Source of the DNA: a virus | Taxonomy: Duplodnaviria; Heunggongvirae; Uroviricota; Caudoviricetes | Reading direction: 5' to 3' (one strand) | Length of the DNA stretch: 10,205 bases | IMG/VR virus record: IMGVR_UViG_2917886563_000001 | Shown: one piece after another, positions 3,867 to 10,205 of the stretch | Layout: every line of letters starts with the position of its first letter | Numbering within the stretch: position 1 is the stretch's first letter | Notes under the pieces: model-generated | Told to the model about the DNA's origin: nothing | Database searches by the model: none | What the model saw: only the letters and a program-made list of their open reading frames with translations | Translations under genes and position numbers: made by a program

Positions 3867-5261
3867 TTGGCTACATGGCAACAGGTTGGTAATTCAGGCG
3901 CTCTTCTTGCCGGGTTGGGCGGCATGAACTCCAACGCTCCAGGAGCAAGTGATGCAGACGCCACGCTTGCATACATTCGACAGAATAACGAGATGGAGCG
4001 TTCAGGACGTAATAACGTTGGCTTGCGGGCTTTGCAGGGCATTTCATCTGTCATGGATATGTATAAGCAGATGGATCAGCAGAAGCGACAGCAAGAGTTT
4101 CAGCAGGCTTATGCTGATGCATATACATCTGGTGACCGCGATGCCATGCGAAAACTGGCATCACAGTATCCTGAGCAGTTCGACGTTGTAAGAAACGGCA
4201 TGAAATTTGTCGATGAAGACCAGCGTACTACTGTCGGTACACTGGCAGCAAGTGCCAGACTCGCAGGTTCATCTCCAGAAGCCATGATGTCATGGCTGCA
4301 GAACAACGCATCTGAGCTTTCTCGCGCCGGAGTAGACCCTCTGGATGTGGCGAAAATGTATCAGCAAAATCCACAAGGTTTCACAGAGTTTGTTGATCAC
4401 CTTGGAATGGCTGCACTTGGACCAGAACAATATTTTCAGGCACAAGACAGAATCGTTGGTCGTGAGATTGACCGTGGAAAACTTGCAGAGGCAATCCGCA
4501 GCAATCAGGCTGGCGAAGCACTAACTGCTCGTGGTCAGAACATCACTATGCGCGGTCAGGACTTATCTGCGTCTACTGCGCGACGCGGTCAGGATTTGGC
4601 AATGCAGCGAGCGTCAACAAGAGGAACCGCTGGGAATGATGAGCGTACAGTTCAGTTATCAGATGGCAGAACTGTAACGGTAGGCGGGAAGCTTCACGGC
4701 GCAGGGGCTAATGCGTTCTACGAAGGCATCGACAACGAGGGGAATATGGTTCGCGTTCCTGCCAGTTCAATCGCAGCGCCTGCAACATCGTCTGCATCAG
4801 CACAAAACTATGCCATGAAGAAGGATATCGACGCGATCGCAAATGCAGACGCTTCTGCTCTCGATTTTATGACAGGAATGACCGGCGGTGCAGGTAACCC
4901 GGCAATTGGTGCTGATGTTCGCAGCCGATTAACAGGAAAAGAGCAGCGTCAGTTATATAACTCAGCACAACGTATTCAGGGAAGAATGCAGAATCAGGGC
5001 GTGGCGGCAGCAAGGGACATGGGCGCCAGTGGTATTAACACCGTTGCAGAAGCGAAGATGTATTTTCAGGGGATGCCGCAGGTTGACTACTCAAGCCCGG
5101 AGGCTATGCAGCAGTCGATTCGTGAGATTCAGGAATACACCAACAATTACAACCAACAATATAACGTTAATGTTGGTAAATCTCAGCGGCAGCAATCTCA
5201 ACCTGCACAGGTATCACAGCCTGCAGCCAGCAGTAACTTTTCTTCACTATGGGGTGATTAA
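3867..5261 (+). CDS. Ejection (E) protein, P22 gp20-like; apparent TTG start
   Basis: The 464-aa ORF has no in-frame ATG near its 5' end. The first codon is TTG at 3867-3869, with GGAGG at 3856-3860 six nt upstream. Length and position match P22 gp20 (about 470 aa). Confidence 0.7.
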
Positions 5262-7564
5262 TGGCTAAAGCATGGAAAGATGTTATCGCCTCTCCACAGT
5301 ATCAGGCGTTAGCACCAGAACAAAAAGCGCAGGCTCAGGAGCAATACTTCAATGAAGTCGTGGCCCCGCAAGCCGGAGAAAATGCAGAGCAGGCTAAGCA
5401 AGCTTTCTATGCTGCCTATCCATTGCCATCTGTGCAGACAGAACAGCAGGAAGTAAGGCAATCTCCTGATGCCATTCAGCAAGACAAATCACTTATGCAG
5501 CGTGCAGGAGAATGGCTAACTGGTGGGCAAAGCGTAGGACAAATTGCCGAGCAGGCGGTAAGAGGATTTGTAAATATTCCTTTTGACGTTCTTCAGGGGG
5601 GGGCGAGTCTCATTAATGCTGCATCTCAGAGTTTTGATGGACCAAAGATTCTTGATGAAGTATATAGACCAGTTAACCGGCCAACGGATCCGTATGCGCA
5701 AGCTGGAGAGTCAATAGGCGGTTATCTTGTTCCTGGAGCAGGTGTAGCTGGAAACATGGTCATTGGTTCTCTCGCTGACGCGGCGAATCAACAGGGGGAT
5801 TTTGCCAAAAATACCGCTATTAATGCCGGACTTAACATTGCTACGCATGGCCTGATAAATGGCGTTACCCGTGGTGTTCGTGGCGCATCAAATATAATTA
5901 GTGGTAATAAAACATCTACACAGAGAGCGACCCCTGCGCCAACAGAAACATCACCATTCTCCGGTGATGCCACTGCAGCAACAAATCCTGCGGTTCATGC
6001 CGCAGAGGCAAGAGTAGCACAAGGTGTACCAATGACGCCTGCGACGAGCAACCCAGAGGAAGTCGTTCGCACAGTTGCTGCACAAAAAAGGCCAAATCTC
6101 GCTTCATCGCTTGATGAATTAGATATCAATCCTCAGGCTGAAGTTCTGGAGTCTGCTGAAAAGCTTAATGTTGATTCATTACTCCCTTCACACTTTTCCG
6201 GGAACGAGCAATACAAGGCTGTTGAGCAAGCAATCAAGTCCCGTGCGGGTTCTGCTCTACAGGTGCAGGAAAATGAAGCAATCAGGCAGCTAGCACAGAG
6301 CGCGGGGAAGATAATTGATCGCGCTTCCGGTGCAAAAGATGCTCTTGGTATGAGCGACAAGTTTATTGATACGGTCAATGGAAGAATGTCTGCCCTGATG
6401 AAACGAAGCGACCAGCTTTATCGCAATGTTGAAAAGGCGATGCCTGCAGGTGCAAAAATTGATGCGCCATCAACAAGGTCAATGCTCAAACAGGTGGCAG
6501 AAGATCTTGGCGGGATGAAAAACCTTGACCCTATTGAAAAGAGAGTCTTTCAGGCAGTTAATCCAGGCAAGAACGGCGCATTAACTTATGCAAATCTCAA
6601 TAAGCAACGACGACTTGTTGGTGATGCACTTCATAAGAATTCTGGACCATATAAAGATGCTGATCGCGCTGCCTTATCGAGGCTTTACGGTTCGCTCGCC
6701 GATGATCAAAAGACGGCGCTGTCAGGGACAATTGCATTACGTGATTTTGAAGTTGCTCAGAGGCTTGTTCAGATGCGAAAAAGTATGGAAGAGCAAATGA
6801 TTAATCTTACTGGCAGAACGCTGAACGGTGATGTTTCTCGCAAAGCAACGACAGCACTACAGGCAATGTCGAAAGGCGATGCCAAAGGATTCCGTGAATT
6901 GATGCAAAACACGCCGTCCAGGAAGCTAAGAACCGAGCTACTGGGAACAGGTCTTCGGGATATGCTTTCGAACGGAAAACGTGGTGCTGATTTTAATCCT
7001 GCAGGGTTTGCTGACTGGTATCAAAACATGTTAGCAAACGGACAAATGCGAAATCTTGCCCGACATTTACCAAAAGAGACTATGTCAGGTCTGAACGATG
7101 TATATAAGGTCGCAAAGGCTATCAAAGACGCAAAATCTTACGAGATAACCACAGGAAGACTAAACGAGTTCGTCAAACGGTTTAATCGTGTCACTGTGGC
7201 AAATGAATTTGTTGCTAACCATGCCCAACGCATTGGCACTGCGGTTGGTTCAACGGTGTCAGGACCGTTCAGTGCAGTAGGTGCTGTTGCTGGGTCAGAA
7301 ATTGGGGCAAAAGTCGCCAGCAAAATCAGGGCGATGGGCGGCGCTGCATCAATGGAATCTGCAGAAAAGCTAATTAGCTCACCAGAATTCCAGAAAGCAG
7401 CAAGGCTGGCAGTAAAACAAGCACCAGAAAGCATCGTTGATACAACTGTAAGACGCTCTTCTGCTTGGCGCTCGTTTTACAACTCACTTCCAGAATCAGA
7501 TAAGAAAACCATATCAAGGCTAGGCATCATGTACTGGATGAACAGTGATGACAACCAGAAGTAA
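5261..7564 (+). CDS. Ejection (E) protein, P22 gp16-like (larger than the P22 prototype)
   Basis: The 767-aa ORF is coupled to the preceding gene by a TAATG overlap at 5259-5263. It is largely Ala/Gln/Lys-rich and apparently helical, and it is the last gene of the ejection-protein block before the mnt/tailspike region, as in P22. Confidence 0.7.
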
Positions 7565-7581
7565 CGGAAAGCCACGGATGG

Positions 7582-7845
7582 TTAGTTGCAGTCTTTTTTA
7601 TATAAATCTCTGAGCGTATCAAAGACAATTTTCTTTACCATATCGGATTGTTGGTCTGCAATACGCTCAGCATCGTCATTGTAAAAAGATGCAGTGCTTT
7701 GTTTAGCCAGTGATTCTTCAATCGCTGCAATTATCTCTGAGTTCAGTGACCTGTTATTCATCTTCGCACGCTGCTTAATTTTGGTGTGGAGTTCATGCGC
7801 AAGTCTCAAATGAAACTGCGCTTCGTCGTATTTGCTGTACATCAT
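7582..7845 (-). CDS. mnt: Mnt-like ribbon-helix-helix (Arc/MetJ family) repressor
   Basis: The translation MMYSKYDEAQFHLRLAHELHTKIKQRAKMNNRSLNSEIIAAIEESLAKQSTASFYNDDAERIADQQSDMVKKIVFDTLRDLYKK aligns along its full length with recalled P22 Mnt (FNFRMPMEVREKLKFRAEANGRSMNSELLQIVQDALSK...NDAERLADEQSELVKKMVFDTLKDLYKK). I favour the start at the Met pair at 7845/7842 because GGTGAGG lies 5 nt upstream on the minus strand. The ORF track's longer form, starting at 7875, has no SD and adds 10 residues absent from P22 Mnt. Confidence 0.85.
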   Translation of the reverse strand: MMYSKYDEAQFHLRLAHELHTKIKQRAKMNNRSLNSEIIAAIEESLAKQSTASFYNDDAERIADQQSDMVKKIVFDTLRDLYKKDCN

Positions 7846-7963
7846 TGATGCCTCACCAGTTGGGTGGAACGGCATCGTAACCTACTGGATAAATACTCAA
7901 TAGTACCATTTAGGTATTCAATAATATCAAAATTGAATCATATCCTTCCTCTGGAGTTACAAA
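7846..7963. promoter_or_regulatory. Divergent intergenic control region between mnt (-) and tailspike (+); candidate Pmnt and operator
   Basis: This 118-bp AT-rich spacer separates divergent start codons. It contains short dyads: AATAC...GTATT (7892-7918) and TTCAAT-9nt-ATTGAA (7917-7937). The tailspike SD, GGAG, is at 7953-7956. No strong sigma70 consensus could be pinned down by eye. In P22 the Mnt operator overlaps Pant, but the operator sequence here is not the P22 one. Confidence 0.35.
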
Positions 7964-9889
7964 ATGTCAGATATCGCCGCAAATGTTGTGGTAAGCATGC
8001 CTAGCCAATTGTTCACTATGGCTCGTTCTTTTAAAACTGTATCAAATGGCAAAATCTTTATTGGTAAAATAGATGAAGACCCAGTAAATCCTGAAAACCA
8101 GATTCAGGTTTATATTGAGAATGAAGACGGATCTTACGTTCCTGTTGCGCAGCCTATCGTGATAAATACCGCTGGATATCCGGTATACAACGGACAAATT
8201 GCGAAGTTCGTAACTGTGCAAGGCCATTCTATGGCTGTGTACGATGCGTATGGGGTACAACAGTTTTATTTTCCGAATGTGCTTAAATACGACCCGGACC
8301 AATTTAAAGGTCAATTGCTAAGCGATAATCACTCTCTTGGTGATTCATTAGTTATGCACAATCCACAATTCACCGGGTCAACATCACTCCCTTTAGCCAA
8401 TAAATTGACTGTTGATGTGCGAACATTATCAGATTATGGATTTAAGGCTGATAACAGCGGAGCACAAAACAAGGCTGCATTCCAGAAAGCCATTGATGAT
8501 GCTACGTTGCCAACGGAGATTGTTATCCCTGAAGGGACGTTCATTATTGACCCTGGTATAACGATTAAAAATATTGTCACCATGATACGAGGTGCTGGCG
8601 CATATCAGTCCAGAATCTTCTCTACTGGAACAAACGAACCAATCATAACCCAGCAAAGCGACCCAATTACTTTCTGTGAGCTTAGAGACTTTGGCTTAGA
8701 TGGTAATAATTACTCAGCTAATGGGATAAATTTTCCTAACGCCAACCATATCAAAATTGAAAATGTAGATGTAACCGGCACTACAAGTAACGCTATCTTA
8801 ATTAATGGTTACTCAATAGATATAATTGGCTGCCGTTTGCTAACAAACACAGGAAATGCGCTTAACATTGGTGGGGTATGTAATAATCTTAACATCATCA
8901 ATAACCGTATTTATGGTAATGGTGCTGGAGGCATCTTGCTTACTCCGGCGTATGCCGAGGGCGGTATGAGCGTCCGTGTAAACGGAAATGATATTGAGCA
9001 AAATAAGTTATACGGGTTTATGTCATTCGGGGTTAAGGGACTTAATTTGGATGATAACTATTGGGAGCGTAACGGCGAAAGTGGATATCCATATGGTACT
9101 CCGGAATTTATAAACATTAAAGCCGATATTCATCTCATTGCTAATGAGTTTACATTAATACCTGACGTAACAAAGATTAATGATACAGTTTCGATTCGAG
9201 GAAACCAGCAAACTGCAATCGGTTACGCCAGTTCCCTCCCTAATCAGGATGGTTTTATATTCACAAACTATGCTAAAAACCTGACAATCGAAAATAATCA
9301 ATTATTGGATGCATCTAAAGTAAACAATTTATTGGTAATGTACCGTAATAATCTTTCGTCTAAAGTTACAGATAGATTGTATCTGGCTAACAATACGGTC
9401 AATTCGATAGGGTATGTTGGAAGTTATGATCCAGCGACACAAAACCCTGATACTGCTCATTTAATAGATATTGCGAACAGAGAGTTAACTGCTAACTATC
9501 TTGATCGAAATATGTTGCTTTGGAACGCGGCATCTGGAACGACAGGAGCATTGATAAAAACTCAAAACATTTATGCTGGTAATTATTCATTCTTAGTTAC
9601 GGCAGGAGATAGAGTTTGGGGACGAACGATAGACCTCAACAAATCACCAGAACTAAAAGGGAAATTTGTATGGTTTGGTGCGTGGGTAAATGACCAGGGA
9701 GCAGCGTCAAAACTTATGTTTATAGTTAATGGTGCAGGACAAACAGACTCTACAGCACCTTTAGCTGGGAATGGGAAATGGCGCTATGTTAGTTGTGGTG
9801 TGTATATAGACGCAACGGCTACAGCTATAAATGTTGGCATAAGAAATTATGGTTCAGGAAATGTACTCATAAACTCACCGTTGATGTAG
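7964..9889 (+). CDS. Tailspike protein: P22-family head-binding N-terminal domain plus divergent right-handed beta-helix receptor-binding domain (probable O-antigen or capsule depolymerase)
   Basis: Residues 1-114 ([57 protein letters not shown]...[15 protein letters not shown]...[10 protein letters not shown]) match the recalled P22 gp9 N-terminus and resemble Sf6/HK620-type N-termini. The rest is rich in Asn/Gly/Ile beta-helix rungs (e.g. [29 protein letters not shown]) and does not resemble the P22 endorhamnosidase body. Confidence 0.9.
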
Positions 9890-10205
9890 CCCCCAGAAAC
9901 ACCGGACAGTAGCTGTATCTCCAGATAAGAGATAGGCTTGAATATATGTCTAACACTAACGCCAATTTTGAGATGACCGGGATCCTGTTAGGGCAAGAAG
10001 TCCGTAAACGTAAAACTCCTCAGGAGAAAATCGCCATTATCCAGCAGACGATGGAGCCGGGTATGAATGTCTCCCATGTCGCCCGCCTGCATGGTATCCA
10101 GCCCAGCCTGCTGTTTAAATGGAAGAAGCATATCAGGAAGGCAGCCTCACCGCCGTTGCGGCCGGAGAGGAATGTCGTTCCTGCTTCTGAGCTTACAGCT
10201 GCTCT
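9886..10205 (+). mobile_element. Left end of an IS3-family (IS2-group) insertion sequence, truncated by the window edge
   Basis: The orfA-like ORF begins at 9946. The sequence just after the tailspike stop (TAGCCCCCAGAAACACC...ATCTCCAGA) resembles the recalled IS2 left terminus (..GGCCCCCTGAATCTCCAGACAACC..). The exact boundary is uncertain to within about 10 bp. Confidence 0.55.
9946..10205 (+). CDS. IS3-family (IS2-like) transposase OrfA, HTH DNA-binding subunit; 3' end outside window
   Basis: The translation MSNTNANFEMTGILLGQEVRKRKTPQEKIAIIQQTMEPGMNVSHVARLHGIQPSLLFKWKK...VVPASELTAA resembles recalled IS2 InsC (..[69 protein letters not shown]..). The ORF is absent from the supplied ORF track only because it has no stop inside the window. 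Confidence 0.75.
   Translation, partial: MSNTNANFEMTGILLGQEVRKRKTPQEKIAIIQQTMEPGMNVSHVARLHGIQPSLLFKWKKHIRKAASPPLRPERNVVPASELTAA

Follow-up and report, generated by a model that had tools for sequence, protein, structure and literature searches.

Two mutually compensating indels in orfA of an ISEcl1-like element at a probable prophage contig end are most likely not a biological feature

The window, i.e. the whole stretch of 10,205 nucleotides that was analysed, ends inside the orfA gene of an insertion sequence (IS), and close to this end two opposite indels first shift the reading frame and then restore it. This double frameshift is most likely not a biological feature, and we regard it as probable that the two compensating indels are base-calling errors at the low-coverage end of a draft contig. 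The original prediction had offered three causes, namely a decayed copy, a variant OrfA, or a sequencing error. Sequencing error is clearly favoured, because the matching strain had been sequenced with Ion Torrent technology, the indels are situated at the contig end, and two indels are accompanied by no substitution.

Results

Positions 9882-10205 (plus strand) are occupied by 324 nt from the left end of an ISEcl1-like element, which belongs to the IS2 group of the IS3 family and has a total length of 1336 bp. A BLAST search with positions 9890-10205 retrieved hundreds of IS3-family copies with 97.8% identity from enterobacterial plasmids and E. coli genomes. The label ISEcl1 was given to the matched element by one depositor, and the NCBI name for a cluster member is 'IS3-like element ISEcl1 family transposase'. 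The start of the IS, TGATGTAG at 9882, is common to all aligned copies; the left flanks differ between copies. An imperfect left terminal inverted repeat of about 40 nt occupies positions 9882-9921 (plus strand), its approximate extent being derived from an IRL/IRR alignment on a full-length sister copy (L013). The inverted repeats start with TG and end with CA, the right end (...GATCA) being located beyond the window and taken from full-length sister copies only.

The first 86 codons of orfA are present at 9946-10205 (plus strand), where the window end cuts the gene. Translation and Pfam analysis revealed the HTH_Tnp_1 domain that is common to OrfA and the OrfAB transposase. The match to PF01527 (HTH_Tnp_1) in the window OrfA had an E value of 4.7e-13 (residues 20-72), and those in the two canonical OrfA proteins scanned had E values of 6e-20 and 6.5e-19. 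In the IS2 group of the IS3 family, orfB is located in the -1 frame and encodes an rve (DDE) domain, and OrfAB is produced via programmed frameshifting. A programmed frameshift is found in the RefSeq annotation of one related copy (L001), and orfB of sister copies matched PF00665 (rve), the corresponding region of the window element lying beyond 10205. The window contains the start of an ordinary ISEcl1-like element of the IS2 group within the IS3 family, and the membership features visible in the window were all found. An IS2-like ancestor had been proposed; the appropriate reference is the ISEcl1-like element (97.8% identical, with a sister sublineage that is identical apart from the indels), and not IS2 itself.

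Nucleotide alignment to ISEcl1-like copies located both indels. One A of an AA dinucleotide is lost at 10130 (GCAATATC is changed to GCATATC), and an extra T is inserted at 10173 (GGAAGTCG is changed to GGAATGTCG); a one-nucleotide deletion had been predicted near 10128-10131, and a one-nucleotide insertion near 10167-10173, and both indels lie within these intervals. The 43 nt between the indels are identical to those of the relatives, but are read out of frame (10130-10173, plus strand), as verified by pairwise and multiple alignments and by the canonical translation of sister copies. Frame 1 from 9946 reads MSNTN...LFKWKKHIRKAASPPLRPERNVVPASELTAA, and the full reading to 10205 is MSNTNANFEMTGILLGQEVRKRKTPQEKIAIIQQTMEPGMNVSHVARLHGIQPSLLFKWKKHIRKAASPPLRPERNVVPASELTAA. 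As a result, the 15 OrfA codons 62-76 are rewritten, and HIRKAASPPLRPERN replaces the canonical 15 residues. The third forward frame yields a 16-residue reading for 10125-10172, and translation of both frames reproduced exactly the two readings on which the prediction had been built. Relative to the closest relatives, two opposite indels are indeed present, as would be expected for a genuine compensated frameshift. Counted from the IS start, they are situated at 249 nt and 292 nt, and the distances to the window end are 75 nt and 32 nt, respectively, such that both fall within the last 76 of the 10,205 nt. Neither of them is located in a long homopolymer.

Rare clusters of cut-short OrfA products of 85-87 aa, with 1-5 members each, are numerous in public assemblies (examples are P0001, P0002, P0005, P0009, and P0012); they result from single frameshifts in the AAGAAGCAATATCAGGAAGG stretch. 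Indel calls in this stretch, be they real or artefactual, seem to be frequent.

Next to the two indels, the alignment of the window copy to ISEcl1-like copies contained five substitutions (at 9895, 10029, 10119, 10163, and 10197), adding up to seven differences. These five substitutions in the first 324 nt are private to the window sublineage in comparison to ISEcl1. A9895 lies inside the left inverted repeat and is also present in a contig of Escherichia sp. E4736 (L003) and in the sister copies. The four substitutions within the coding region each affect a third codon position and are synonymous in the canonical frame, for which we calculated a chance probability of about (1/3)^4 = 0.012 under random change. 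The five substitutions of the window copy are real. A scan of IMG/VR with the sublineage markers led to L006, a lambdoid prophage with a full-length copy of 1336 bp. Exact protein look-ups assigned this prophage to Escherichia sp. E1130, and look-ups with the OrfA and OrfB proteins of this copy led to three contigs from other sequencing runs (L008, L009, and L013). L006, L008, and L009 represent one insertion site, while L013 represents a second, independent site with an intact copy. Compared to 9882-10205, all four contigs exhibited 0 mismatches and exactly 2 gaps, had all five substitutions in common with the window, and encoded the canonical 15-residue segment. Therefore, the indels are not an effect of the choice of reference.

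The full-length sister copies have a length of 1336 bp, are 95.6% identical to ISEcl1, and contain orfA (HTH_Tnp_1) as well as orfB (rve). Over the whole element, 37 synonymous, 17 non-synonymous, and 5 non-coding changes separate the sublineage from ISEcl1; the excess of synonymous over non-synonymous changes implies that the divergence of the sublineage took place under purifying selection. The marker A10119 had no match in species-representative genomes, and, within the collections searched, the sublineage was encountered only in cryptic-clade Escherichia and in a few sequencing-run assemblies.

Two additional observations concern the sister copies. At each of the two independent sites of the sublineage, the full-length copy is bordered by direct repeats of 16 bp (TAACTCCCATGGTAGG and CCCTGCACTGCCTGTT), which are located at 255-270 and 1607-1622 of L006 and at 14-29 and 1366-1381 of L013, i.e. 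at two sites only. In contrast, a canonical ISEcl1 copy (L002) has a 5-bp duplication, TCAGA. For the IS2 group a target duplication of 5 bp is expected, and one of 16 bp would be unusual for the IS3 family. Furthermore, the sister at the E1130 site contains a C-to-T nonsense mutation at orfA codon 117 (R117*, TGA; positions 683-685 of L006, and the same in L008 and L009). It directly precedes the AAAA slippery run of orfA and should stop the ribosome short of the -1 frameshift site; codon 117 of L013 is an intact CGA. This nonsense mutation looks real, and thus decay does occur within the IS sublineage of the window.

The region 5417-9901 of the window, which includes the junction between the tailspike gene and the IS, is 100% identical to VATT01000060.1 (contig L003) of Escherichia sp. 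E4736, with 0 differences in 4,485 nt. In addition, the exact 641-aa tailspike product (WP_240731156.1) is on record only for E4736. This strain, E1130, and 14 other strains of cryptic clade II were sequenced with Ion Torrent technology, yielding single-end reads of 35-400 nt (Shen et al. 2019, PMC6639607). The E4736 assembly was generated with MIRA 4.0.2 and SPAdes 3.6.0, and gaps were closed manually by means of repeats identified at the ends of contigs (PMC6639607). Contig VATT01000060.1, the other assembly of this region from E4736, stops 20 nt past the IS start, as would be expected if the element is present in multiple copies in the E4736 genome.

The window starts 2 nt before a perfect (CCAGAG)x12.8 microsatellite (3-79, detected with Tandem Repeats Finder), and it ends 324 nt into the IS, a distance shorter than the read length. 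With a microsatellite at one end and an IS at the other, the window can be taken as a whole contig of 10,205 nt that is bounded by repeats. We infer that it is the whole contig of an Ion Torrent assembly of E4736 or of a near-identical strain, whereby the link of the window to Ion Torrent data rests on the identity to another assembly of E4736. In related phages, the hexanucleotide array lies within a small ORF that is located between the coat gene and gp4, and there it encodes repeated dipeptides; an internal position in such a small ORF was also found upon alignment to phage APC_JM3.2.

The unique phage DNA of the window contains 0 gaps in 4,018 nt when compared to strain RHJI01, and all nine phage ORFs are intact, most of them with full-length Pfam matches. 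The unique regions of the window are error-free, and therefore an artefact must be specific to the repeat or to the contig end. Exactly 32 nt separate the inserted T from the window end, as would be expected for a k=33 de Bruijn edge with a copy-specific variant. This distance is compatible with a well-supported real variant and with a recurrent error alike, and it does not separate the two.

Neither of the indels, singly or paired, was detected in about 1,800 other copies of the element, whereby both single forms were sought in plasmids only. In 72,556 plasmids, which contained about 1,645 copies, neither the pair nor either indel was present, as revealed by searches with 10090-10205 and with short queries centred on the indels. 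Nor did 5,426 complete E. coli genomes contain the paired indels; in these genomes, as in the plasmids, 10090-10205 was matched with 96.6% identity at best. Scans with a 65-mer and a degenerate 59-mer did not detect the pair in species-representative genomes, in IMG/VR, or in JGI metagenomes, and the exact pattern of the deletion alone was absent from the JGI metagenomes. At the protein level, HIRKAASPPLRPERN did not occur in any of about 15 billion proteins, including a homology search of a collection of 5.8 billion clusters, and exact look-ups of four modelled full-length variant OrfA proteins showed that none of them is on record. The original prediction had named reference elements with the same HIRKAASPPLRPERN segment as the observation that would speak against it; such elements were sought in DNA and protein collections, and none was found. 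The variant was not encountered in a second independent sequence or assembly, with no DNA or protein match in the collections searched.

Insertion of the IS interrupted a P22-like tailspike gene (7964-9889, plus strand), which was identified by the Pfam domains Head_binding and Beta_helix and by its relatives. The interrupted gene comprises 639 native codons followed by Leu-Met-stop across the junction, which are mostly supplied by the IS, whereas the intact relatives have a length of 707 aa. Relatives that are 99% identical at the protein level are intact. The disruption of the tailspike by the ISEcl1-like element is real, and it suggests that the prophage is probably defective and does not form functional virions.

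Two neighbouring genes deserve a comment. The ORF of a gp16-like ejection protein (5261-7564) encodes 767 aa, in comparison to 665 aa in a close relative (L014), and no alignment to this relative was obtained for its central part (about 5442-7573). The 767-aa ORF had no Pfam match at E<=0.001; PF26808 was matched by the shorter products of gp16 homologues in the E4736 contig L003 (same DNA, later start) and in L014. These observations suggest that the ORF encodes a mosaic or extended ejection protein. Between the gp16-like gene and the tailspike gene, a gene for an Arc/Mnt-type ribbon-helix-helix repressor is present on the minus strand (7582-7875), as in the immI region of P22.

Discussion

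Base-calling errors would have arisen as follows. The last approximately 300 nt of the contig would reach into the repeated IS only via a few single-end reads of at most 400 nt, and these few reads would be anchored in the unique flank. At such a thinly covered end, indel errors of the raw reads would survive in the consensus, and the in-frame cancelling of the two indels would be a coincidence. The known error profile of the platform can be compared with this proposal. Ion Torrent reads have a total error of 1.7-4.8% per base, in which indels dominate and substitutions are lower by a factor of ten (Bragg et al. 2013, PMC3623719). Error rates climb along the read, deletions prevail in homopolymers of at least two nucleotides, and spurious single-base insertions, mostly A or T, prevail at a true homopolymer length of zero (PMC3623719). 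The indels of the window resemble such errors in that a deletion in a 2-mer and an A/T insertion at a non-homopolymer site occur far from the read anchor and without substitutions. An AA dinucleotide shortened by one A, an additional T without a template, and 0 substitutions, all in the last 76 of 10,205 nt and with no indels elsewhere, fit the profile of the platform. From the published rates (PMC3623719), we estimate that a depth of one or two reads would commonly leave one to three raw errors within 76 nt. A long-read or hybrid assembly with unpolished repeats had also been considered as the source of the errors, and was replaced by the Ion Torrent origin of E4736.

To evaluate the readings in which the indels are real, the predicted effect on the proteins has to be considered. 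The rewritten segment is located upstream of the programmed frameshift, and hence it would be carried by both OrfA and OrfAB. In an AlphaFold model of canonical OrfA (mean pLDDT 72), residues 53-65 form the third helix of the DNA-binding domain, which is followed by a short helix (67-72) and two long helices (80-97 and 102-117). For IS2 OrfA, an N-terminal three-helix DNA-binding domain (residues 13-58) and a coiled coil (residues 73-100) have been described; S57G lowers DNA binding as well as transposition, and L58I abolishes both (PMC3219604). Residues V45, A46, R47, H49, G50, S54, L56, W59, S67, and L68 of the ISEcl1-like OrfA match IS2 InsC at an offset of +10. The two elements have the same OrfA architecture, and a canonical 14-residue segment is conserved, whereas the N-termini are unlike and the frameshift window is A4 in the ISEcl1-like element, but A6G in IS2. 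The window reading replaces the equivalents of IS2 residues 52-66, and OrfA S67 and L68, which correspond to S57 and L58 of IS2, are changed to A and S. Across 25 homologues, Q62, Y63, E65, G66, L68, A72, G74, and E75 hardly vary. Given these replacements and the introduction of three prolines, a real variant would most probably fail to bind the IS ends.

The best-surviving alternative, which we nevertheless consider unlikely, is that the indels are real and private to a defective copy, and that a second nearby frameshift cancelled the first one by chance or that both arose in one clustered mutational event. OrfA and OrfAB would have lost the end of the DNA-binding domain, and the copy would be non-autonomous. 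IS pseudogenes are common, and the sister at the E1130 site has a nonsense mutation at orfA codon 117. Many truncated 86-aa OrfA products that result from single frameshifts in the same stretch are present in databases, and the window assembly is accurate in unique DNA. In addition, inactivity is predicted from the replacement of the equivalents of IS2 S57 and L58 and of nearly invariant positions. However, in neutral decay substitutions outnumber indels, and thus 2 indels and 0 substitutions relative to the sisters over 324 nt are a poor fit; neutral decay in situ is disfavoured for this reason. Decay also gives no reason why both indels should be found in the last 76 nt, neither of them in a long homopolymer. 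A single-indel intermediate was found neither in the plasmids, which were searched for both forms, nor in the JGI metagenomes, which were searched for the deletion only, and the platform used for the matching strain yields exactly such errors.

It is very improbable that the indels are both real and selected, such that a compensated frameshift restored translation and gave rise to an OrfA/OrfAB variant with 15 new residues that works or has gained a function. With the frame restored exactly, synthesis of the coiled-coil and catalytic parts would remain possible, and the insertion site is new, the 99%-identical relatives containing an intact tailspike. The variant protein might then act as a regulator with changed properties or, with its dimerisation zipper retained, as a dominant-negative inhibitor. 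The case resembles known compensated frameshifts in that a pair of 1-nt indels of opposite sign, separated by 43 nt, brings back the frame and alters a short peptide. It differs from them in that a second carrier or a sign of selection is lacking and that the change affects a conserved, functionally sensitive segment. Nearly invariant residues are replaced, and three prolines are introduced where the model predicts the last part of helix 3 and the short helix formed by residues 67-72. Moreover, single changes at the homologous positions of IS2 already reduce (S57G) or abolish (L58I) binding and transposition, and the variant was found nowhere else, contrary to the prediction for a transposing lineage. 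If a variant of this kind were real, the restoration of the frame would have no obvious selective cause.

An assembly chimera, in which the contig end was threaded through reads of different IS copies, one with the deletion and one with the insertion, hardly comes into consideration: the break of the other E4736 assembly 20 nt into the IS would indeed be expected for a multi-copy element, but two single-indel copies would be needed, none was present in the plasmids, where both single forms were sought, or in the JGI metagenomes, where the deletion alone was sought, and read errors are more parsimonious. A templated or gene-conversion origin from elsewhere in the IS was set aside, as only trivial 7-mers match.

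There is a slight chance that the window encodes a DNA-binding-deficient OrfA/OrfAB, in which the end of the recognition helix and the linker are rewritten, whereas the coiled coil and the catalytic core are kept, and that such a protein could poison or re-tune the transposition of sister copies, or could be a rare working transposase remodelled by frameshifting. Base-calling error, the favoured reading, carries a more general caution: a frame-restoring pair of indels looks biological, and here it is explained by its context. A look-alike of this kind is accounted for by a platform prone to indels, by a contig that stops within a repeat, and by sister copies that match in everything but the indels. 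If, on the other hand, the indels were real, the element would be one more routine defective IS copy, relevant only to annotators of the strain.
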